DNA of 58,720 nt from assembly GCA_964466455.1 (NCBI GenBank), contig CAYXNL010000004.1, forward strand, positions 1 through 58,720, in the 5' to 3' direction. Each line of letters starts with the position of its first letter. Within the stretch, counting starts at the first letter, position 1. Under the pieces are notes generated by a model, which was not told the DNA's origin, did no database searches, and saw nothing but the letters and a program-made list of their open reading frames with translations. Of this stretch, positions 48,275 through 58,720 are shown in pieces. Source of the DNA: an uncultured Thiotrichaceae bacterium. GTDB lineage: Bacteria; Pseudomonadota; Gammaproteobacteria; SZUA-229. A program made the position numbers and the translations under genes.

Positions 48275-49255
48275 ATGAACTCGCGCTGGCAGCCGACAGC
48301 AAGTTTGGCCGTACTGAAAAAACGAGCGCATCTGTTGCAGGAAATACGTGCTTTTTTTTCTGCTCGCGAGGTGATGGAAGTTGAAACACCTGTCTTATCT
48401 ACTTATGCAACCACCGATCCTCATCTGGATAGTTTACAAACGACAGTGGGTGATACCACCTGTTATCTGAATACCTCACCGGAATACTGTATGAAACGCC
48501 TGCTGGCCAGTCAGGCAATTGCGATCTACCAGATTATCAGAGTCTTTCGTGATGATGAATATGGCCGTTATCATAATCCTGAATTCACCATGTTGGAATG
48601 GTATCGTCCTGGCTATTCACTGACGCAACTTATGGATGAAGTAGAGGCGCTGATTAAAACCACCTCTGCCGGTCGGTTTTCGTCGCCGTGTTTTTCTCGC
48701 CTTAGTTACCAGCAAGCCTTTGAACAGTATGCCGGATTTAATCCACACAGGTGTAGCATGGCACAGTGCCGACAGGTAGTGCTGGATCACAATATTGAGA
48801 TTCCTGAGGGGATGTCCGCAGCACAGACTAGTCTGGATGACTGGCTGGACTGGATCCTGACGCAGTTGGTACTGCCTGCATTACCCGCGCAGCAGTTTGT
48901 TTTTTTATATGATTATCCTGCATCACAGGCATCGCTGGCAAAAATAGAAAAGACCGACATGGGGTACCCGTTAGCACGCCGGTTTGAATTACTCTATGGC
49001 GAACTGGAACTGGCGAATGCGTTTTATGAATTAACCGATGCCAATGAACAGGAGCAGCGCTTTAGACAGGAATGCCAACAGCGACAGATAGCAGGAAAAC
49101 CAGCTCCGGAGATGGACCAAAACCTGCTGGCGGCATTAGCACATGGCCTGGCAGAATGTTCAGGAGTGGCAATAGGTCTGGATCGCTTACTGATGGTGTT
49201 ATGCAACAGTCGGTCAATAGATGAAGTGCTGGCATTTCCGTGGCAACGGATCTGA
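48275..49255 (+). CDS. epmA: EF-P lysine aminoacylase EpmA (PoxA/GenX)
   Basis: TSPEYCMKRLL, HNPEFTMLEWY, GVAIGLDRL. Confidence 0.96.
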   Translation: MNSRWQPTASLAVLKKRAHLLQEIRAFFSAREVMEVETPVLSTYATTDPHLDSLQTTVGDTTCYLNTSPEYCMKRLLASQAIAIYQIIRVFRDDEYGRYHNPEFTMLEWYRPGYSLTQLMDEVEALIKTTSAGRFSSPCFSRLSYQQAFEQYAGFNPHRCSMAQCRQVVLDHNIEIPEGMSAAQTSLDDWLDWILTQLVLPALPAQQFVFLYDYPASQASLAKIEKTDMGYPLARRFELLYGELELANAFYELTDANEQEQRFRQECQQRQIAGKPAPEMDQNLLAALAHGLAECSGVAIGLDRLLMVLCNSRSIDEVLAFPWQRI

Positions 49256-49511
49256 AAGTAGTCGAGAGATTGCTCCTGAGAAAAGTATTCCGCGATGTTG
49301 CGGACAGGTAAAAAAAGCCAGTTTTATGCTGCGATTGTTGTCCCTGATCATTAAAATTGTGTTTTACAGTAGAATTTATTGAATAGATAGGGTAACTTCG
49401 CAGTAATTGTTTTTTGTAATGAATCTGGAAATGCCTTGCAATGATATAACCCACAGGGCATTTTTTCGAGTCAGTGCCTGCAATATATATTTGGCAATTA
49501 AATTTATGTAA

Positions 49512-50642
49512 ATGAACATGAAGGTAGCTTTCAGCATGTCGATTAGAAAAATAACAAAATATTCTCTTCTCCTTTTCTCTTTTATCTCGATTGTTGCACA
49601 GGCTGACAGTGTTATCACGGTGGGTGTCGCGCCCCATGGTGGTTATGTCATTCTCGGTGGTAGTGTGATTCCGTTAAAAGAGGTCACTCTTTCGGCACAA
49701 ATGCCTGGTCGAGTGGTATCAATTGCCGGGGATGAAGGGGACAGGTTTAAAGCGGGTACGGTTTTGCTCAAGCTGAATAACGAAGATTTACTGGCAAAGA
49801 AAACGGCCGTTGAAGCGCAACTGGCCTCGGCGAAAGATGCGGTACAGAATGCACGGGTGCAATATAACCGGGAATTATGGAGCCCGCGTGTTTATAACCC
49901 TCGTCCAATGTCGGGGATGGCGATGCCTTCCATGTTTGACAGTTTTTTTAACAGGAATAGTTTTTTTGGTGGTAATGGCAATAAAAGCATCGAGCGACAT
50001 GCAGATCTTGTTGGCCAGGGTTCACAGGTTGTGGCAGCCCGTTCACGGGTACGTGAGGTCGAATCAAAGTTGCGCGAAGTTGATGCCAAGCTACGTGATA
50101 CCGTTGCCATCGCACCATTTGACGGTATTATTATGAAAAAACAGGTTGAAATTGGTGACACCGTTCAGCCGGGGCAGCCATTACTGATTTTTTCCTATAT
50201 AAAATTTCTGCGTATTCGTGCGGATGTTCCCGCACGTTTAATGCCGGGGCTTAGAAAAGGCATGATAGTTCCCGCTATGCTGGATGTGGGTAATACACAG
50301 GTTAATGTTCGTGTTGCGCAGATTTCACCGGTAGCAGATAAAACACGCCATACAGTGACCGTCAAGTTTGATTTACCCGAGGGTGTTCCCGGTGGTGTGG
50401 GTACTTATGCAGAAGTAATGATCCCTGATGTTAATTCACCTATGCGTGCTCTGCCGGTTGTCCCTAATGCTGCAATACAGAGGAACGGCAGCCTGCCTTC
50501 CGTCATGGTACTCAATCATAATAATAAACCGGAAATGCGCTTGATTCGTATTGGTGAAAAAGTGGGTGAGGATAGCGTTACCGTGCTTTCAGGTTTGAAA
50601 CCCGGTGAGCGGATCCTTGTTCATGGCCATAATGGACAATAG
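49512..50642 (+). CDS. RND periplasmic adaptor (HlyD/MFP family) with hairpin-tip insertion
   Basis: Split lipoyl motifs (SAQMPGRV...GDRFKAG and APFDGII..VEIGDTVQPGQPL), coiled coil, cleavable signal AQA-D; start may be 49536. Confidence 0.92.
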   Translation: MNMKVAFSMSIRKITKYSLLLFSFISIVAQADSVITVGVAPHGGYVILGGSVIPLKEVTLSAQMPGRVVSIAGDEGDRFKAGTVLLKLNNEDLLAKKTAVEAQLASAKDAVQNARVQYNRELWSPRVYNPRPMSGMAMPSMFDSFFNRNSFFGGNGNKSIERHADLVGQGSQVVAARSRVREVESKLREVDAKLRDTVAIAPFDGIIMKKQVEIGDTVQPGQPLLIFSYIKFLRIRADVPARLMPGLRKGMIVPAMLDVGNTQVNVRVAQISPVADKTRHTVTVKFDLPEGVPGGVGTYAEVMIPDVNSPMRALPVVPNAAIQRNGSLPSVMVLNHNNKPEMRLIRIGEKVGEDSVTVLSGLKPGERILVHGHNGQ

Positions 50643-50725
50643 TTATCTGGTCTCAACTTCAGATAGTTGCAGGTGTTCGTGGCGGCAGGACGAACAGAGT
50701 TTAATGGTAAAAAATAATGACTAGT

Positions 50726-50764
50726 TTCTTATGACCGATTCTTATGACCGATTCTTATGACAGA
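50726..50764. repeat. 13-bp tandem repeat spanning the RND start codon
   Basis: TTCTTATGACCGA x2 plus TTCTTATGACAGA. Confidence 0.95.
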
Positions 50765-53700
50765 TAATAAAGAAAAAAAATCACTGGATGTTGTAGAAGA
50801 AAAGCTTAAATCCGTGCCAGGAGAGCCTGAAGCTGTGGAAAAAGAAGTGCATTTAGGTGTCGCGGGTAATGTTGCACGAATTTTTATCAGCTCACCATTA
50901 ACACCCATGCTTATCATTCTGTTTATTCTGATGGGCCTTGCGGGTATTGTTTTTACCCCGCGGCAGGAAGACCCACAGATAACCGTTCCAATGGTTGATA
51001 TTTTTGTCAGATATCCAGGTGCCTCTGCGCAGCAGGTCACTGCACTGGTGGCGAAACCACTGGAACGCATCATGAGTGAGATGAGTGGTGTGAAACACAT
51101 CTATGCTGCAGCGCAACGGGATTCGGCTATTGTTACTGTGCAGTTTAAGGTGGGGCAGAAGATGGGTCCCTCACTGACCAAGCTATACAGCAAACTCAAC
51201 TCCAATAAAGACAAGATGCCGCCGGGGGTTACCAGCTATATTGTTAAGCCAAAAGATATTAATGATGTTCCTGGACTGACCTTAACGCTCTGGTCTAACC
51301 AGGTGAACGATGCCTCATTGCGTCTGGTCGCACTGGATGTATTGCAGAAACTAAGTGAAGTACCCAATTCTAACCAGGGGTTTGTTGTCAGCGGGCGTAC
51401 CGAACAGTTGCGGGTAGAAGTTTTACCAGAGAAGCTGGCAGGCTATGGTATCACCTTGCAGCAGATAGCAAATACCATACGCCAGGCAAATAGTGAAGAA
51501 AGCGTGGGCAATATCGAAGCCTGGGATAAAAGCTTTAAGGTATATACCGGTTCTTTTCTGAGAACAGCGCAGGATGTTGAAAATGTTGTTGTAGGCATCA
51601 AGGATGGTCTCCCTGTATACATACGTGATGTTGCTAATGTTATTAACGGGCCGTCTGAAGTAACCAAACTGGTCACGCAATACACCGGGCCCGCCAGCAA
51701 GGAAAAAGAGGTTGCTAATGGGGCTCAGGCAGTAACGATTGCTATTGCCAAGAAAAAAGGTAGTAATGGTGTTTCTGTCTATAAAGCATTACTGGCAAAA
51801 GTTAACGCTATAAAAGGTGTCATTATTCCCGATAATGTTCATGTCTTTGTTTCTCGGGACTACGGGGTGACAGCAAATAACAAGGTAAATGAGCTGATCT
51901 TCAAGTTATTTGTCGCCACCGGTATTGTGACCCTGTTGATCTGGTATGCGCTGGGTTGGCGCCCTGCCGTGGTGGTGCTGATTGTTATCCCGATTGTTAT
52001 TCTGTTTACCGTATTCAGCGCGATGATATTGGGGCAGAGTATAAACAGAGTGAGTCTGTTCGCCCTGATTTTTTCCATTGGCATTCTGGTTGATGACGCG
52101 ATTGTGGTGATTGAAAATATCTATCGCCACTGGTTGATAAAAGGGGATATGAGTGAAAAAGTATCTATTGATGCAGTGCGGGAGGTAGGTAATCCAACTA
52201 TTCTGGCTACCTTCACGGTAATTGCAGCGCTGCTGCCAATGGGAGCGGTGCGCGGCATGATGGGGCCCTATATGCTGCCTATTCCCATATTAGGCACGGT
52301 CGCCATGCTGGTTTCACTATTTGCTGCTTTTGCGTTTACCCCGTGGCTGGCTAACAGGCTCAAACCCTCAATGGAGCAGTTGCGTAAATCGGAGGAAAAG
52401 GAACATCGAGCTAATGATCGACTGGCCAGATTTTTCAGGAGAATGATCTGTCCGCTGGTGGATAATAAAAAACTGGGTTATGGCTTTTTAATATCACTGT
52501 TTGTACTGTTCTTCGCCAGTTGTGCAATGTTTTATACAAAGGCTGTATCGGTAAAAATGCTGCCACTGGATAATAAGGCTGAATTTGATATTGTCATTAA
52601 TTTTCCTGAAGGCACATCCTTAATTGATACCGCTAATTTAGCAGCTACCCTGGCAGGTGAAGCGAGGAAATTTAAAAATGTTGTTGCATTGCAGTCCTAT
52701 GTAGGGACAGCTTCACCGTATGATTTCAACGGTCTGGTTCGTCATTATTATCTGCGTGATAAACCCTGGCAGGCAGATATTCAGGTTGAACTGACCGATA
52801 AGGATAAACGAGACGTTACCAGCCATCAAATTGTTGAGAAAATGCGTAAGGTTATGGCTCCTGTTGCGAAGGCCGCAGGTGCCCGCATACAAATGGTAGA
52901 GATGCCGCCGGGGCCGCCGGTGTTGCAATCTGTGGTGGCGATAATTTATGGACCGAATGCTAAAACACGCAGGAAATTTGCCCATGATATGACGCTTATG
53001 TTCGAAAAAGCGCCGAGTATTACTGATGTTGATAATTTAATGCAGGATCCGTATGAAATTTGGCGCTTTGAAGTGGATCGCGACAAGGCGTTGCGTGAAG
53101 GTATCAGTGTTGATGCCATTAATCAGACATTGGCTATGGCCGTCGGTGGCTACAGACTTGGTGATATTAAACGTGGCTCGGTGGTTGACCCTACCTATAT
53201 CGTGCTACAGGTACCTCAGTCGGTACGCTCCGAGTTCTCCAGACTGGGGACAATTCCGGTACAGGCCGCCAATGGAGCGCTGGTGCCATTGTCAGAACTG
53301 GGTACTTTTGTGAAGGGCATTGAACAGGATGTTATCTACCAGAAAGATTTGCGTAACGTTGAATTCGTGACCGGTGCCAGTGCAGGCAAGCTGGCTGCAC
53401 CAATATATGGCATGTTCCAGGTCGATGATATGCTCAAGAACTATATTGCGCCCGATGGCGTGAAGGTAGCCCATGGGTTTATTCACGGTGGTTATTTTGG
53501 GCCACCGGCTAACAGTAGAAAGTCAGCGTTTGAATGGGGTGGTGAGTGGACGGTGACGTATGAAACCTTCAGGGACATGGGGGGCGCATTTCTAATTGCC
53601 ATGGTGCTGATTTATATGCTGGTTGTGGTTGAGTTTAAAAATTACATTTTTGCCTCAATTATTATGGCACCGATCCCGCTGACACTTATTGGTATTATTC

Positions 53701-54854
53701 CGGGTCACTGGTTACTGAATGCGAGCTTTACCGCCACATCCATGATTGGCTGGATTGCGCTATCCGGCATTATTGTGCGTAACTCAATATTACTGGTGGA
53801 TTTCACCCGCCATGAAGTACTGCGAGGTATTGATGTACGTGATGCGGTCATTAACGCATGCCGTGCCAGAACACGTCCCATTCTGATTACCGCACTGGCA
53901 CTGGTTGGCGGCTCCAGTGTTATTCTGACTGACCCGATCTTCCAGGGGATGGCTATTTCCTTACTGTTCGGTGTTATTGTTTCAACGATATTAACCCTGT
54001 TTATTATTCCGTTGGGTTGTATCTCGGCTAAAAATGCCTTTGCAGTTTGCCCCGCTGGTTCAGTAAAAGCAACGGTAGAAGAAGAATATATTGATAGCCT
54101 GGAGCCGCCCTCATGTGAGTACAAAACACCGGTGTGGATGAGTGTTTATAGCGCTGTTGTCAGCGTCGTGAACTGGATCTTTGTTATTGTGAAAATGTTT
54201 TATAACCTGGTGCGGCTGCTTATTAGCGTAATCAGGGAAAAGCTTACTTCCAGTCATGCAACACCACCAACCGAGCCTGGAACGCCCGGTTCTTCGTCAC
54301 CCACCCCGGTACCCCCCGCACCACCCGTACCCTCTACGCCTGCGGCTTCTACAGACGTGCATTCTACGGTTAAGACTAAGACTGCGGAGTCAGATGCATC
54401 GGCGACAGCGTCCGTAGCTGATTTGGCTACAGAAAAAACAGAATCTACGGATATAAATCAGGAGAAAATAGCTAAGCCAGGCGTTAACCATGAGGTTGTA
54501 AAAAAAGCAATGGTTAAGAAAGCAATGGTTAAGAAAGCAATGGTTAAAAAGGGAATTGTTAAGAAGGAAACGGTTAAGAAAAAGGAAGGTAAAACAGTAC
54601 CGAAAAAGAGTGTGGTGAAGAAAAAAATATCGGTGAAAACATTACCGGTAAAGAAAACAACAGGCGAGAATAGTCCAGTTAAAAAAGGCCGGCCTGAAAA
54701 AGTTCCAGGTAGAAAAATAACGGTTAAGAAAGTACCGGCTAAAAAATCACCATCAGGCAAACGTAGAGGCATCCGCTTAAAAGTTGATAACGATCAGATG
54801 CCTGATAACCATAAGTCTGATAACCATAAGTCTGATAAAGATAGTGGAGAATAA
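50757..54854 (+). CDS. RND permease (AcrB/AcrD/AcrF-like) with about 280-aa C-terminal extension
   Basis: TM4 GILVDDAIVVIENI, TM10 GIIVRNSILLVDF (Arg at the AcrB K940 position), TM11 RTRPILITA; 1365 aa. Confidence 0.93.
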   Translation: MTDNKEKKSLDVVEEKLKSVPGEPEAVEKEVHLGVAGNVARIFISSPLTPMLIILFILMGLAGIVFTPRQEDPQITVPMVDIFVRYPGASAQQVTALVAKPLERIMSEMSGVKHIYAAAQRDSAIVTVQFKVGQKMGPSLTKLYSKLNSNKDKMPPGVTSYIVKPKDINDVPGLTLTLWSNQVNDASLRLVALDVLQKLSEVPNSNQGFVVSGRTEQLRVEVLPEKLAGYGITLQQIANTIRQANSEESVGNIEAWDKSFKVYTGSFLRTAQDVENVVVGIKDGLPVYIRDVANVINGPSEVTKLVTQYTGPASKEKEVANGAQAVTIAIAKKKGSNGVSVYKALLAKVNAIKGVIIPDNVHVFVSRDYGVTANNKVNELIFKLFVATGIVTLLIWYALGWRPAVVVLIVIPIVILFTVFSAMILGQSINRVSLFALIFSIGILVDDAIVVIENIYRHWLIKGDMSEKVSIDAVREVGNPTILATFTVIAALLPMGAVRGMMGPYMLPIPILGTVAMLVSLFAAFAFTPWLANRLKPSMEQLRKSEEKEHRANDRLARFFRRMICPLVDNKKLGYGFLISLFVLFFASCAMFYTKAVSVKMLPLDNKAEFDIVINFPEGTSLIDTANLAATLAGEARKFKNVVALQSYVGTASPYDFNGLVRHYYLRDKPWQADIQVELTDKDKRDVTSHQIVEKMRKVMAPVAKAAGARIQMVEMPPGPPVLQSVVAIIYGPNAKTRRKFAHDMTLMFEKAPSITDVDNLMQDPYEIWRFEVDRDKALREGISVDAINQTLAMAVGGYRLGDIKRGSVVDPTYIVLQVPQSVRSEFSRLGTIPVQAANGALVPLSELGTFVKGIEQDVIYQKDLRNVEFVTGASAGKLAAPIYGMFQVDDMLKNYIAPDGVKVAHGFIHGGYFGPPANSRKSAFEWGGEWTVTYETFRDMGGAFLIAMVLIYMLVVVEFKNYIFASIIMAPIPLTLIGIIPGHWLLNASFTATSMIGWIALSGIIVRNSILLVDFTRHEVLRGIDVRDAVINACRARTRPILITALALVGGSSVILTDPIFQGMAISLLFGVIVSTILTLFIIPLGCISAKNAFAVCPAGSVKATVEEEYIDSLEPPSCEYKTPVWMSVYSAVVSVVNWIFVIVKMFYNLVRLLISVIREKLTSSHATPPTEPGTPGSSSPTPVPPAPPVPSTPAASTDVHSTVKTKTAESDASATASVADLATEKTESTDINQEKIAKPGVNHEVVKKAMVKKAMVKKAMVKKGIVKKETVKKKEGKTVPKKSVVKKKISVKTLPVKKTTGENSPVKKGRPEKVPGRKITVKKVPAKKSPSGKRRGIRLKVDNDQMPDNHKSDNHKSDKDSGE
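54498..54587 (+). repeat. 15-bp coding repeat, VKKxx pentapeptides in the RND tail
   Basis: VKKAM x3, VKKGI, VKKET, VKKKE. Confidence 0.95.
54802..54838 (+). repeat. 15-bp tandem repeat (DNHKS) at the RND C-terminus
   Basis: CTGATAACCATAAGT x2 plus CTGATAA. Confidence 0.9.
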
Positions 54855-54858
54855 TTTA

Positions 54859-55584
54859 ATGTATGCTAAAGGTAAATTTCTGTCATTATCATGTCTTGTC
54901 TTAGCATTATTGCCTTCGGTTGTAATGGCGACACAGGAACAGGATAAAGCAGGTGCAGCACTGAAAGCGATTGATTCGACAAGGGCGGGGGCAGCGACGA
55001 CTCATACAGTTATAAAACCGGCGGGAACTAAAAATAGTGTTACCGTCAGAAGTGCCAGAAGTAATAATATGCCAATGAAATTTCCACCATGGCCGCCCCG
55101 GCAATCTTTTAACCATAACATGTTACCGCCTCCACCACCCGGGCCTTATATGTCTACGGCATTAAGTAATACGCCGACGAAAGTTCCAGTATCGAATCGA
55201 CCCGTGTATTTACCACCAGTAATGCACTCACCACCGGTAATGAATGAAGGTGCGGAGCCGATGGCAATGTTCAGTCCAGATCGGCCCTGGCCAGGTGATC
55301 GGGTAAGGCAATGGAAGCCTGAAAATGGCGGCTATCATTACGCCGGGTCTGCTTTTCCACCACAATATCCACCCGTTAAAGAAAATGGGTACCGCCCATA
55401 TCAACCAGCGCTGCCCCCGAGGTTTGTCAGGTCACCAGGTAGAATGCATACCAGGATGCCATCCAGCCGCCACAGGTACAATGGTTCGGCCATGATGCAA
55501 CCGGGTATGCCGCCACGGTTTCAACCACCGGCTTATCCTTCTGCACCACTTCAGCCATACCATCGTTCACAAACCGGATATTAA
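54859..55584 (+). CDS. Secreted proline-rich low-complexity protein
   Basis: GGAGA RBS 8 nt before ATG 54859; signal peptide ending VMA; LPPPPPGPYMSTAL, PDRPWP, many PP pairs. Confidence 0.78.
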   Translation: MYAKGKFLSLSCLVLALLPSVVMATQEQDKAGAALKAIDSTRAGAATTHTVIKPAGTKNSVTVRSARSNNMPMKFPPWPPRQSFNHNMLPPPPPGPYMSTALSNTPTKVPVSNRPVYLPPVMHSPPVMNEGAEPMAMFSPDRPWPGDRVRQWKPENGGYHYAGSAFPPQYPPVKENGYRPYQPALPPRFVRSPGRMHTRMPSSRHRYNGSAMMQPGMPPRFQPPAYPSAPLQPYHRSQTGY

Positions 55585-55589
55585 ATAGT

Positions 55590-56393
55590 TTGATGGGTAT
55601 ATCACGGTTTTTTTTGTTTTTTGTCGTATTTTTACTGTCACTAATGATGAACACTGCGGCAGTTGCGGGAGATCGTATTGCCGGACGTAGCGATCAGCGG
55701 ACTCGGCCATTGAATTCGGCAGAGTTTATTCTGGCGGCAACGGATAACCCATGGGTGCCGTCGCCAACACAACGGGCAGACGGCTTTCCTCATTACTATA
55801 ATGCAAAAAAAGATAACCCCTTCCAGCCTCAGCAAATGAACCGGTCACCGATTTATAACAGTAGAAATTCATCACATCCTTATTACAGATACCCGATGCA
55901 ACCACGTTATGTGACGCCAGCTATCCTGAAATCAATCAGAAAACAGCAAATGCGTGCACAGCAAATACTGCCATCATGGCAGCGATATCCATACCCATAC
56001 CAAAGATATCCATACCAAAAGCGTAATTACTGGCAATATAATCCATCACCTAACAGATATGGAAGAGGTGGTGATCGCGGCAATAGCCTTGGAAATAACC
56101 CTGGGAATAGCCCTGAAAATAGCCCCGAAAATAGCTATGGCAACTGGTCTGCGAACCCTGCATTACCGGTTAGTCCCGGTACCCTGCTGGATAAATCATT
56201 ATTAGATGGCAACGGGGGCTTGCCGCTTACCCCGGACATGACAGCAATAGAGGGTATTTCACCATTAAACGCCAATGAACCATTACCGCCTGAATTATCA
56301 GGGAATAATTATGACAGTTCGGGTCGTTATTTTGATCCCATGGCATTTAATCCCTCGTCAATGTTCGGTCCTTTTGATAATTTTGCGCGGTAG
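55590..56393 (+). CDS. Secreted Tyr/Pro/Asn/Gln/Arg-rich low-complexity protein
   Basis: Signal peptide ending AVA; QRYPYPYQRYPYQ; (G/E)NS(P/L/Y) repeats; 5 bp after the previous stop. Confidence 0.78.
   Translation: MMGISRFFLFFVVFLLSLMMNTAAVAGDRIAGRSDQRTRPLNSAEFILAATDNPWVPSPTQRADGFPHYYNAKKDNPFQPQQMNRSPIYNSRNSSHPYYRYPMQPRYVTPAILKSIRKQQMRAQQILPSWQRYPYPYQRYPYQKRNYWQYNPSPNRYGRGGDRGNSLGNNPGNSPENSPENSYGNWSANPALPVSPGTLLDKSLLDGNGGLPLTPDMTAIEGISPLNANEPLPPELSGNNYDSSGRYFDPMAFNPSSMFGPFDNFAR
56079..56138 (+). repeat. 12-bp coding repeat (GNSL GNNP GNSP ENSP ENSY)
   Basis: ggcaatagcctt ggaaataaccct gggaatagccct gaaaatagcccc gaaaatagctat. Confidence 0.9.
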
Positions 56394-56645
56394 TCTGTAA
56401 TGCCTGAACACTGCATAGCGGTGGTCGGCACATAGCGTATTTGGCTAATATACCAATCTTTATTAGTGTAATCATAAGGTTAAGTTATTAGCGTTCCTGT
56501 GAAATATTCGGGGTAAGTGGTAAAACACCCCGATCTTTCAGGTAAATAGCAGCGTCATATTGTCAGCTTATGCGCTTACGTTCATAGTGTAGAATAGTGT
56601 TGATGACATAACGATAATAAATGATTTTACAGGCAGGTAATTTTT

Positions 56646-57275
56646 ATGTTGACAGTTGTAGGTAATTTGAAGGGTGGAACAGGCAAAAGTACAGTTGCAT
56701 TCAACCTTGCAGTATGGTTAGCATACGACAAACAAGGGGTGAAAGCTTTCGATTTAGATCCACAATGTACATTGCTTGATGTTTGTGAAGTACGAGAAGA
56801 AGACGGTTATGAGCCGATATTTGAGGTGTCTTCCGATGTAGATGAAATGGTTACCCTGGCCGCAGACAAAAAATACAGGCAACCGATTATTGTCGATATG
56901 AGTGCAAGTAATATGCCTGCAATGGAAACGGCCATTTCGGTTGCTGACAGAATACTGATACCGGTACAACCGAGTCAGGCAGATATCTGGTCAACGCAAC
57001 GGTTTTTAAAAATTGTCGCGCAGAATCTGAATACAGATAAAAATACAGAAGTGCTTGGTTTTATTAATCGTGCAGATACACATCGGGGTATTCGGGAAAC
57101 AGAAGAAGCACAGCAGGCATTGCAGGTGTTGCAGGGTGTTAAGGCGCTGGATATCCGGCTATATCAGCGAACCGCCTATCGACGCTCATTCAGCGAGGGG
57201 CTGGGTGTATTTGAACTCGACCCGATGGGAAAGGCATCGAAGGAAATGAAAAAACTGGCGGTGATGCTCGATTAA
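56646..57275 (+). CDS. Short orphan ParA/MinD-family ATPase
   Basis: Deviant Walker A KGGTGKST, A' DLDPQ, Walker B IIVD; 209 aa, no N-terminal HTH, no parB adjacent. Confidence 0.93.
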   Translation: MLTVVGNLKGGTGKSTVAFNLAVWLAYDKQGVKAFDLDPQCTLLDVCEVREEDGYEPIFEVSSDVDEMVTLAADKKYRQPIIVDMSASNMPAMETAISVADRILIPVQPSQADIWSTQRFLKIVAQNLNTDKNTEVLGFINRADTHRGIRETEEAQQALQVLQGVKALDIRLYQRTAYRRSFSEGLGVFELDPMGKASKEMKKLAVMLD

Positions 57276-57348
57276 GATACTTGACTACGGTATTGCGCGG
57301 TCTACTTATCCAATAAATTCAGGGTACAGGATTGAAAGAGGTTTATGT

Positions 57349-58344
57349 ATGAAATTTTTTCGCTGGTTATTAAGTAATATATTATTAATTATTGTTGTGG
57401 TCGGACTGATCTATACCTATGTGTACTGGGGACATCTGACTGGCGCTGATACCCCGGGAGGGAGGGTAATTACCTATTTATCTGGTGAGTCAGGCTTCGT
57501 CCATAATTTTGTTAATGGGATTAAAGAAAAAAACAGCAATCGGGAAAAGCACTCACCGTCTAATCAGCATACTGCAACGCCGTCAGTGGCTTTACATGGG
57601 GAAAATAACTCAGATCATTCGATCACAACATCCGGCTCAGCACCAGACAATCATGCTACTCCGGAAAATGTTTCTGCCGGGAAGGTAACCGCTGAGGCAA
57701 AGGAAAAAGAAAAAGAAAATAACGTTAACGTTGTTTCACGACAGCCGCAGCAGAGTGATAATACCGGCAATGCTTCATCTGCTGTATTACCACCCAAAGA
57801 AGCCGCGCATAACGCTAATAGTACCCTGGCGCAACAACCGGTTGCTACAAAAGAAAAGAATACTATTCCCCGGAAAAAAGGTCTTTCACCTTCCGCTCAG
57901 GCAAAGGTAGAACCACAGAAACCTGAACAGCAAGGTCATTCTAAAATAGCCAGATCAGGTGTTTTTGTCAGTCCAGACGTTGAGTCCGCACTGGAAAAGG
58001 CCGGTGCTAAAGGGGAGGTGGCAACATTGACACCGACCGCAATACGTAAAGTCTGGATCGAAGCCAGAAAATCCTTTTATAAGCATGACTATATGCAATC
58101 AGAGAAGGACTATAAACGTGTTATAGCGGCGACAAAAAATAATTATGATGCCTATGGAGAACTGGGTAACGTTTATTTTTATCAGGGTAAAAATGATAAA
58201 GCCGCCGCCACTTACATGAAAGCTGCGCTTATAATGATAGATTCAGGGCAGAGTAACCGCGCGCGCAGCTTACTGGGCCTGATGCACTATCTCAGTAAGG
58301 ATAAAGCGAAATTGCTTGAGCAGAAACTTGAGGCAGCTCAATAA
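57349..58344 (+). CDS. Membrane-anchored protein with disordered linker and C-terminal TPR domain
   Basis: N-terminal TM (LLSNILLIIVVVGLIYTYVYW), long S/N/A/E/K-rich linker, TPR-like YDAYGELGNVYFYQGKNDKAA. Confidence 0.8.
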   Translation: MKFFRWLLSNILLIIVVVGLIYTYVYWGHLTGADTPGGRVITYLSGESGFVHNFVNGIKEKNSNREKHSPSNQHTATPSVALHGENNSDHSITTSGSAPDNHATPENVSAGKVTAEAKEKEKENNVNVVSRQPQQSDNTGNASSAVLPPKEAAHNANSTLAQQPVATKEKNTIPRKKGLSPSAQAKVEPQKPEQQGHSKIARSGVFVSPDVESALEKAGAKGEVATLTPTAIRKVWIEARKSFYKHDYMQSEKDYKRVIAATKNNYDAYGELGNVYFYQGKNDKAAATYMKAALIMIDSGQSNRARSLLGLMHYLSKDKAKLLEQKLEAAQ

Positions 58345-58437
58345 CAGACACTGTCCAGAGAGCTATAATGTTTCACGCGGTACGTAATTTATTTATACCT
58401 GATATTATGAAACGAGGCGCTGCTGGCGATTTTTAGT

Positions 58438-58720
58438 ATGACCGATAAAAAAATGACAGAATCAATAAAAGCCGAGTCAACCGATACCCCGGCTGAAAAA
58501 ACAACAGATACTGCCAACACCGTATCTAATGTAAAAACGGAGATAAAGGTAGAAAAAAAAGCGGAGGGTAAAAAAATCTCAGCGAAAAGATCGGTGGCTA
58601 AAGCATCGACAGCAGAGGCACCGTCTAAAAAGAAGGCGGTGAAGAAAGATCCCGTGAAAAAAGGCCCCGTGAAAAAAGGCCCGGTGAAGAAAGACGCAGT
58701 GAAGAAAGATGAGGTGAAGA
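58438..58720 (+). CDS. Lys-rich histone-H1-like protein with VKKxx repeats, truncated by window end (not in ORF track)
   Basis: Hand translation, open to the edge: MTDKKMTESIKAESTDTPAEK...SKKKAVKKDPVKKGPVKKGPVKKDAVKKDEVK. Confidence 0.8.
   Translation, partial: MTDKKMTESIKAESTDTPAEKTTDTANTVSNVKTEIKVEKKAEGKKISAKRSVAKASTAEAPSKKKAVKKDPVKKGPVKKGPVKKDAVKKDEVK
58639..58720 (+). repeat. 15-bp coding repeat, VKKxx pentapeptides
   Basis: gtgaagaaagatccc gtgaaaaaaggcccc gtgaaaaaaggcccg gtgaagaaagacgca gtgaagaaagatgag gtgaag. Confidence 0.95.

Follow-up and report, generated by a model that had tools for sequence, protein, structure and literature searches.

The ParA gene and its product

The stretch of DNA analysed here, called the window below, covers bases 1 to 58,720 of a contig of 65,450 bases (CAYXNL010000004.1) in a 2.27-Mb, 97% complete assembly of an uncultured Thiotrichaceae bacterium. 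Our subject is a gene close to its end that encodes a short ParA-family ATPase. The coding sequence and three segments within it are:

56646..57275, + strand: ParA-family ATPase of 209 residues with a ParF-like fold (ATG start and open reading frame; Pfam and NCBIfam matches, AlphaFold2 model and tree)
56670..56693, + strand: deviant Walker A motif KGGTGKST, residues 9–16, with signature lysine K9 and Walker A lysine K14 (read from the sequence; both lysines invariant in 27 orthologs)
56970..57005, + strand: PSQADIWSTQRF block, residues 109–120, spanning the switch II region and the beginning of the next helix (nearly invariant and family-specific)
57168..57200, + strand: RTAYRRSFSEG loop, residues 175–185 (ortholog alignment)

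An earlier note on this DNA, made from the sequence alone, had recognized a 209-residue ParA with the signature lysine in KGGTGKST and a basic RTAYRRSF patch; the reading frame and both motif positions (the latter at residues 175–182) are confirmed. The protein scores 50.8 bits against Pfam CbiA (PF01656; cut-off 25.4 bits) and 135.2 bits over its full length against NCBIfam ParA_partition (NF041546), which is under the 180-bit cut-off of that model. It has the xKGGxxK[ST] motif, the Walker A′ and Walker B aspartates (D36, D38 and D84) and the fold that characterize the ParA/MinD superfamily. Residues K9, G10, G11, G13, K14, S15, T16, D36, D38 and D84 are invariant among the 27 orthologs and, judged from these catalytic positions and the fold, the ATPase looks intact.

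The AlphaFold2 model has a predicted local distance difference test score (pLDDT) of 85.3. A Foldseek search returned 234 Protein Data Bank (PDB) matches at E ≤ 0.001, and the top 50 listed are nearly all members of the ParA/MinD family (ParF, Soj, MinD, McdA and MipZ). The best of these are structures of TP228 ParF/ParA, with template-modelling (TM) scores of 0.76–0.78, above Soj, McdA and MipZ. TP228 ParF is also the nearest solved structure by sequence (E 1e-9). A C-terminal amphipathic membrane-targeting helix is absent from ParA; its terminal helix is part of the ParF fold, and what follows that helix varies among orthologs.

Three invariant blocks are specific to this family: PSQxDxWSTQRF (residues 109–120), NRADTH (141–146) and RTxYRRSxSEG (175–185). 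Within the first, P109, S110, Q111, D113, W115, T117, Q118, R119 and F120 are invariant in the ortholog alignment. The vicinity of switch II is the partner-binding region in MinD-type and ParA-type ATPases, and residues 109–120 are therefore a candidate partner-binding surface. The block is kept even in a divergent ParA (34% identity; genome G021) that adjoins a transporter tail ending in KRGIRLH. Within the third, R175, R179, R180, S181, S183, E184 and G185 are invariant among the 27 orthologs, and the monomer model drops under a pLDDT of 50 nowhere but at residues 176–184. This loop aligns with the arginine-bearing loop PRNVRLAEAPSHG of the Soj protein from the same genome and may have a DNA-binding role.

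A conserved cluster around ParA

ParA is preceded by the two components of a resistance–nodulation–division (RND) pump and by two genes for secreted proteins, and is followed by genes for two membrane proteins:

49512..50642, + strand: periplasmic adaptor of the RND pump (membrane fusion protein, MFP; TIGR01730 RND_mfp, 157 bits, above cut-off)
50757..54854, + strand: RND permease of 1365 residues, with a core at about residues 1–1090 and a C-terminal tail at 1091–1365 (PF00873 ACR_tran, E 1e-137)
54859..55584, + strand: Sec1, secreted Pro-rich low-complexity protein (signal peptide; no Pfam match; weak homologs at the same position in relatives)
55590..56393, + strand: Sec2, secreted Tyr/Pro/Gln/Asn-rich low-complexity protein (signal peptide; no Pfam match)
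57349..58344, + strand: transmembrane–tetratricopeptide repeat (TM-TPR) protein of 331 residues, with an N-terminal anchor, a low-complexity linker and C-terminal repeats (TPR_16, E 2.6e-7, under gathering score)
58438..58720, + strand: 5′ part of LysTM, a membrane protein with Lys-rich, transmembrane and Met-rich parts, which runs past the window (open reading frame, continued in the contig sequence)

The LysTM reading frame has no stop at the window edge and crosses an assembly gap of about 100 Ns, within VKK repeats, into a transmembrane helix and a Met-rich domain. The conserved part of this protein consists of a juxtamembrane FxASARRWE motif, the transmembrane helix and the Met-rich domain, which is coiled-coil-like. 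LysTM is followed by a 494-residue dynamin-like GTPase (PF00350, 52 bits) and then by psd, prmB and aroC.

ParA homologs form more than 120 sequence clusters at 81–100% identity, all of about 209 residues, and the family as a whole comprises more than 4,300. In 27 species-level metagenome-assembled genomes the ParA ortholog is 77–86% identical and lies in a fully syntenic locus. Its conservation matches that of aroC and efp from the same loci, while the TPR protein is only 31–50% identical across these 27 genomes. Because synteny within one clade proves little, sampling was extended to the whole class, where a ParA ortholog (36–59% identity) was found in 62 of 400 genomes and 47 of 321 genera. 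Distant neighbours were called from strand-specific open reading frame lists and tblastn. At 20 loci from other families the flanking genes efp, epmA, psd, prmB and aroC are gone, and ParA is still accompanied by MFP and RND (17/20), the TPR protein (14/20), LysTM (11/20) and the dynamin-like GTPase (11/20). The RND orthologs that adjoin ParA in these distant families are 50–64% identical.

A phylum-level sample added 47 ParA carriers from another class. The six that were looked up are Magnetococcales, and carriers in that order include Magnetococcus marinus MC-1 and Magnetofaba australis; the same arrangement was present in five of seven loci fetched. Gammaproteobacterial carriers include the Solemya symbiont Ca. 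Reidiella endopervernicosa, Sulfuriflexus mobilis and Endothiovibrio diazotrophicus. The gene order is MFP, tailed RND, secreted low-complexity proteins, ParA, TM-TPR protein, (DUF302 protein), Met-rich membrane protein and dynamin-like GTPase. It is thus highly likely that ParA belongs to a conserved chromosomal cluster shared by many gammaproteobacterial families and Magnetococcales. Every annotation of a ParA ortholog is generic (e.g. ‘AAA family ATPase’ or ‘chromosome partitioning protein’), so that current annotation mislabels the family.

Several details of the window's own locus may be noted here. For Sec1, the longest open reading frame begins at a TTG (54784) that still lies within the 3′ end of the RND gene. 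Translation more probably starts at the ATG at 54859, 4 bp past the RND stop, from which the product has a clean signal peptide. In the nearest relatives (ParA 85% identical), a 255-residue secreted protein with a faint DUF4412-like match lies just before ParA (L004:9181-9948), and a membrane-anchored DUF302 protein lies between the TPR protein and LysTM (L004:11648-12238). Neither gene was found anywhere in the 97% complete assembly (compare window positions 56394-56645 and 58345-58437), so that the cluster is present here in a reduced version. The run of Ns lies at about 58720-58820 of the contig with an identical KKDAVKKDEVKK repeat on either side; it looks like an assembly break in the VKK repeats, so that the repeat number and LysTM length read from the sequence are provisional. 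A promoter and terminator scan of 49200-58720 gave sites no more numerous than in shuffled sequence; no + strand terminator falls within the cluster, and the one promoter-like site there (56560-56588) is weak.

The RND tail and its conserved tip

The RND permease has a C-terminal extension, for which two features are listed:

54027..54854, + strand: RND tail, consisting of a hydrophobic segment, a Pro/Thr/Ser-rich region and a Lys-rich stretch of VKK repeats (assigned by composition)
54762..54782, + strand: RRGIRLK, RND residues 1336–1342, a candidate ParA-binding and ATPase-activating peptide 1.9 kb upstream of ParA (regular-expression scan)

The tail contains 16% lysine and 69% disorder-promoting residues, carries a net charge of +24 and scores 23.4 bits against the histone H1-like protein HC2. 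Tails past the twelfth transmembrane helix (TM12) vary widely by lineage, being Lys-rich here and Pro/Ala/Glu-rich elsewhere. The tip behaves differently: at each of the 46 loci matched in the scan, the RND frame closes with RRGIRLK or a near variant, once per locus and 0–23 residues before the stop, including three loci in which the tail is split by a frameshift. Exact RRGIRLK was found in 39 of 62 ParA-positive genomes as opposed to 9 of 339 ParA-negative ones (p = 2.3e-29), the nine being about the chance expectation for so degenerate a DNA pattern. Of the 39, 28 have the peptide at a distance of 0.9–5 kb from ParA.

Genomes that lack one component are informative. The complete genome G162 (locus L094, G162:C1:1794500-1803000) encodes a tail-less RND, Sgp-like proteins, a 260-residue protein, the TPR protein, LysTM and the dynamin-like GTPase, and ParA is missing at exactly its expected position. 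In G009 (locus L096, G009:C1) a tail-less RND occurs with the TPR protein and LysTM, and both ParA and RRGIRLK are absent. The TPR protein and LysTM are thus independent of ParA, as is the dynamin-like GTPase in G162, and the tail is not. The divergent ParA of G021 occurs together with its KRGIRLH tail. Long tails were present in 54 of 56 cases with ParA and 6 of 13 without (p = 5e-5), but this comparison is confounded by a tail-less RND paralog, with RND orthology verified only for G162 and G009, and we keep it as weak support. The tail-less second RND, 55–60% identical and about 1090–1130 residues long, occurs in many ParA-positive genomes (G274:C242, G084:C41, G215:C141, G135:C19 and G186:C6); it is a paralog subfamily and complicates tail calls made by length.

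The partners of known ParAs act through a disordered terminus with positive charge and can themselves belong to the cargo (PMC10241942). In the window's genome, the activating N-terminus of ParB (MAVKKKGLGRGLTALL / KKKGLGRGLTALL) resembles the tail tip GKRRGIRLKVD. The RRGIRLK tip is a plausible partner of ParA.

For such a role the tip would have to be cytoplasmic. An additional hydrophobic segment of about 34 residues, WMSVYSAVVSVVNWIFVIVKMFYNLVRLLISVI, comes after TM12 (RND residues ~1126–1160, window 54132-54236). It is common to many tailed orthologs and absent from Magnetococcales and some other tails, and may be a re-entrant or amphipathic membrane anchor. The tails of Magnetococcus marinus and of loci L101, L103 and L082 carry the same peptide and have no hydrophobic segment, and standard RND topology places the peptide of these segment-less tails in the cytoplasm. 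The net charge of +24 favours a cytoplasmic location for the window's tail as well.

Basic segments also occur elsewhere in the cluster. The ParA orthologs of Magnetococcus marinus MC-1 (L099) and Magnetofaba australis (L101) have Lys-rich C-terminal extensions (e.g. ...SSKKKKAPKEGKKSAKISKTG), and in the window's lineage Lys-rich stretches are found on the RND tail and LysTM instead of ParA. The basic segment seems to move between cluster members.

Association with sulfur globule proteins

The genes between RND and ParA in related genomes encode low-complexity proteins with signal peptides. In distant genomes this interval holds, at the position of Sec2, Gly/Tyr/Asn-rich proteins of 127–152 residues that match the Pfam sulfur globule protein (SGP) family PF17228 at 58.7, 57.0, 37.3 and 34.4 bits (gathering score 26.7). 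Across a 401-genome sample, SGP matches occur in 48 of 62 genomes with ParA and in 5 of 339 without (odds ratio 229, p = 1.8e-43). The SGP gene is 0.35–3.2 kb from ParA in at least 15 genomes. The earlier description of the site as an envelope-transport locus missed the main point, which is that the cluster is tied to sulfur globule proteins both by SGP genes within it and by co-occurrence.

The window's own genome has an SGP match of 41.6 bits on contig C41 and a dsrA match of 611.8 bits on C27, which marks it as that of a sulfur-storing oxidizer. We also observed a NifH-like gene (C19:18993-19865), DsrA with an adjacent DsrB-like gene (C27:17111-19470) and two tandem SGP matches (C41:10453-11142), which point to a diazotrophic, sulfur-storing oxidizer as the source organism.

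No description of this cluster, or of sulfur globules in connection with ParA, dynamin-like proteins or this pump, was found in the literature searched, nor was RRGIRLK. The Sgp literature covered deals with coat proteins only, with no pump, ParA or dynamin, and describes globule placement as apparently random in many species. In the Allochromatium vinosum pyrite transcriptome the sole pump mentioned is an unrelated CzcA-type transporter.

Placement within the ParA/MinD family

The resemblance of ParA to ParF raises the question of a plasmid origin. Both the nearest solved structure and the nearest family model (ParF and ParA_partition) are of the plasmid type, and the ortholog from Magnetococcus bears the annotation ‘plasmid segregation oscillating ATPase ParF’. 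That the gene is a partition ATPase of the ParF/ParG type from a plasmid or an integrative and conjugative element (ICE), or an integrated relic of one, is nevertheless hardly credible. A tblastn search of PLSDB gave a best identity of 37% to any of 72,556 plasmids. In a maximum-likelihood tree, 43 chromosomal ParA orthologs form one clade (support 96/96, stem 1.76) that excludes plasmid ParF-type proteins as well as four further proteins of this genome, namely Soj, FlhG and two that are ParA-like. Among the nearest plasmid homologs, three of four loci inspected have a gene of 80–100 residues downstream that is either ParG-like or a short unannotated open reading frame; here only 73 bp separate ParA from the TM-TPR gene, which leaves no room for a ParG-like gene. 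ParA is single-copy in all 62 carriers of the class sample except G215, which has two matches, and it is flanked syntenically by housekeeping genes in the 27 related genomes. Base composition is even across the window.

No parB, rep or integrase gene was found near ParA in the window or in the remaining 6.7 kb of the contig. The sole ParB_N match in the assembly is on contig C17 (C17:11545), beside a separate 267-residue soj/parA. The absence of parB and rep reported in the earlier note thus extends to the contig end, and the ParA is an orphan in having no ParB, but not in the sense of standing alone, as it is a conserved member of a multi-gene cluster. Neither of the two observations that the same note had named as telling against its view, a grouping with plasmid or ICE ParAs and a parB just outside the window, was made in the tree or in the rest of the contig.

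We also compared ParA with the described classes of the family. Membership of the ParF/ParG plasmid partition class was rejected on the missed NF041546 cut-off, the lack of a downstream ParG-like gene and the separate position in the tree; NF041546 itself discriminates poorly, as three further proteins of this genome, Soj and two ParA-like ones, reach 98–126 bits with it. Chromosomal ParA/Soj proteins of ParABS systems have an adjacent parB and about 250–270 residues, as opposed to 209 residues and a parB only on C17. For MipZ, the PF09140 match is limited to the P-loop (residues 3–39), and the structural TM-scores (0.72/0.57) are under those of ParF. MinD was rejected on the missing membrane-targeting helix and a TIGR01968 score of 25.8 (cut-off 212.9). 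McdA was rejected on gene context, the neighbours being RND, secreted proteins, TPR protein, LysTM and dynamin-like GTPase at every locus examined. The VirC1 model NF010423 gives 22.8 bits as compared with a cut-off of 313, and the locus has no type IV secretion system (T4SS) genes; the PF07015 VirC1 match of 26.3 bits is slightly above its cut-off of 24. BcsQ (TIGR03371) gives 42.9 bits against a cut-off of 157.85, and no bcs genes are present in the locus.

We refer to the family provisionally as a ‘sulfur-globule-cluster ParA’ clade. This grouping is defined in the present analysis and is not curated; its definition takes in monophyly with the orthologs, an adjacent RND gene whose frame ends in RRGIRLK and SGP in the genome, and all three features were found for the ParA described here. 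As a separate observation, none of the ParA/MinD-type proteins in this genome (Soj on C17, two ParA-like proteins on C38 and C9, an FlhG-like protein on C38 and the present ParA) reaches the MinD equivalog score, and the genome may be without MinD.

Proposed role and rival explanations

We propose that this ParF-fold ATPase is the dedicated positioning ATPase of a conserved, sulfur-globule-linked cluster and that it grips the tip of the RND tail, a reading to which we assign a probability of about 0.55. ATP-bound ParA dimers would be located on the nucleoid, and the RND pump would lie in the inner membrane next to an extracytoplasmic sulfur deposit. The long disordered tail, if cytoplasmic in this lineage, would reach the nucleoid, where its invariant RRGIRLK tip would bind the ParA dimer and stimulate ATP hydrolysis. 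The resulting diffusion-ratchet could space pump/globule assemblies along the cell and share them between daughters. The fullest version of this model, in which nucleoid-bound ParA positions and partitions the periplasmic globule itself across the inner membrane, through the RRGIRLK tip of an RND/MFP pump attached to or feeding each globule, is put forward more tentatively, and we regard it as possible rather than probable; the globule-positioning role is attractive but unproven. The earlier proposal of a ParB-less cargo-positioning ParA with a dedicated disordered partner is supported by the gene's context and phylogeny, and the contact with that partner is what the model predicts.

Several observations weigh against this interpretation. 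The window's own cluster contains no SGP gene, Sec1 and Sec2 match no family, and 14 ParA-positive genomes have no SGP match. Sulfur globules are extracytoplasmic and coated by Sgp proteins (PMC10386293), so that a cytoplasmic ParA could reach them only via membrane proteins. G162 has the rest of the cluster without ParA, which makes ParA an accessory rather than a core component. In G237 the tail ends in TRGIRLD and no ParA was found. Described partners use their N-termini, and the candidate RND peptide is C-terminal (PMC10241942). Finally, should the hydrophobic segment after TM12 cross the membrane once, RRGIRLK would be periplasmic and the model would fail.

ParA might alternatively be an organizer or assembly switch for a membrane complex, like BcsQ, FlhG, TadZ or VirC1, that determines where, how many or whether RND/MFP/dynamin assemblies form, for instance by polar recruitment or by gating of pump or dynamin activity, in place of a ratchet based on nucleoid gradients. 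ParA/MinD ATPases do organize envelope machines with extracytoplasmic products, the weak BcsQ (TIGR03371, 42.9 bits) and VirC1 (PF07015, 26.3 bits) matches extend over most of ParA, BcsQ is among the structural matches, the membrane dynamin-like GTPase offers a possible regulated target, and the co-occurrence data fit equally well. We consider this unlikely, although it is the strongest of the alternatives: ParA has no C-terminal amphipathic membrane-targeting helix, its invariant YRRS loop falls, in alignment, on the arginine-bearing loop of Soj from this genome, its nearest fold is that of ParF, a nucleoid-matrix ATPase, and the Lys-rich, H1-like stretches on the tail and LysTM point towards DNA. 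A good deal less probable is that ParA and the tail co-occur merely as parts of a ‘full’ cluster, the peptide binding the dynamin-like GTPase, DNA or a periplasmic component and ParA having a different partner. Co-occurrence is not contact, the hydrophobic segment leaves room for another topology in the window's lineage, G237 has a motif-like tail and no ParA, and the tail-length test is confounded by the paralog subfamily; yet G162 keeps the dynamin-like GTPase, the TPR protein and LysTM and loses exactly ParA and the tail, the segment-less tails of Magnetococcus marinus, L101, L103 and L082 carry the same peptide on what standard topology makes the cytoplasmic side, and the peptide resembles the activating N-terminal peptide of ParB.

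The activating partner might instead be encoded downstream of ParA, as LysTM, the TM-TPR protein (N-terminus MKFFRW) or the dynamin-like GTPase. A partner gene usually follows parA directly, the ParA and TPR genes are tightly spaced or overlapping in several genomes, LysTM keeps its cytoplasmic juxtamembrane FxASARRWE motif and the 58438 protein is strongly basic. The TPR protein and LysTM persist without ParA in G162 and G009, however, as does the dynamin-like GTPase in G162, and distant LysTM orthologs have only 25–85 variable residues before the FxASARRWE motif and transmembrane helix, with no Lys-rich part. The TPR N-terminus MKxFRW was rejected as a ParA peptide, as it is not conserved among ParA-positive loci (MKVVSQL, MTSLLKK and MLGFLLR). 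Only the RND tail tip is both invariant and tracks ParA, and we regard a downstream partner as improbable. The earlier note had described the downstream neighbours correctly and had proposed as partner either the 58438 protein or the RND tail. The second is favoured by the terminal RRGIRLK, although the basic VKK region of the tail turns out to be lineage-specific; the first is disfavoured, since its Lys-rich N-terminal part is absent from distant orthologs and its gene persists without ParA, and the Lys-rich 58438 protein is probably not the activator.

ParA/MinD ATPases serve bacteria in general for the placement of large cargos, and their known cargos are chromosomes, plasmids, carboxysomes, chemoreceptor arrays, flagella, the divisome and conjugation machines. 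Were our preferred reading of a pump-gripping positioning ATPase correct, it would add a new type of cargo to this repertoire. The cargo would be extracytoplasmic, or a membrane pump serving such a cargo, and the partner peptide would be built into the C-terminal tail of a polytopic transporter. In the fullest version of the model, globules would not be passive deposits but the products of a dedicated genetic toolkit (pump, coat proteins, ParA and dynamin) that builds and distributes them actively. The cluster would provide the first candidate genes beyond the coat proteins for sulfur delivery and for the enclosure, placement and inheritance of globules. The ParA family spans clam symbionts, vent and sediment sulfur oxidizers and magnetotactic cocci.

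Comparison with known systems

In its fold, ParA is closest to TP228 ParF, which acts with ParG. The two share a length of about 206–210 residues, the deviant Walker A motif, TM-scores of 0.76–0.78, 21–26% sequence identity and the lack of an N-terminal DNA-binding domain, and in both cases a flexible peptide with arginines is the expected means by which the partner acts. They differ in that the present ParA is chromosomal, has no ParG-like gene or centromere, is at most 37% identical to plasmid ParAs and forms a separate clade. It also has invariant blocks of its own (PSQxDxWSTQRF, NRADTH and RTxYRRSxSEG), and its candidate partner peptide ends a 12-TM transporter.

In its mode of action, ParA would work most like the cargo-positioning ParAs of the McdA–McdB and PpfA–TlpT systems. 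These are likewise ParB-less ParAs encoded beside the genes of a protein cargo, with a disordered, positively charged partner segment, and for PpfA–TlpT this partner itself belongs to the cargo (PMC10241942). In the present case a membrane pump and extracytoplasmic sulfur would take the place of a cytoplasmic body, the candidate peptide is C-terminal, and the cluster contains no carboxysome or chemotaxis genes. The relationship to McdA is distant: structure 6non gives TM-scores of 0.67/0.57, and Cyanothece McdA matches residues 77–191 only (E 5e-6).

BcsQ, VirC1 and TadZ/CpaE provide the precedent of a ParA/MinD ATPase whose gene is part of an operon for a membrane machine with an extracytoplasmic product, and BcsQ and VirC1 show weak whole-length similarity to ParA. 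The scores are far under the family cut-offs, no bcs, T4SS or tad genes are present, and the partner in our case would be an RND pump. Members of the SgpA/B/C/D family of Allochromatium vinosum (PF17228) are found inside the cluster in distant relatives and co-occur with ParA, whereas the two secreted proteins of the window are not SGP members.

PhaF and PhaM are polyhydroxyalkanoate (PHA) granule proteins with histone H1-like Lys/Ala/Pro tails that tether the granule to the nucleoid and have no ATPase. The Lys-rich, H1-like segments of the RND tail and of LysTM (VKK repeats) could similarly bind the nucleoid and assist in sharing out granules when the cell divides. Unlike those tethers, however, the H1-like stretches appear here as a lineage-specific decoration, and it is ParA and RRGIRLK that form the conserved pair.

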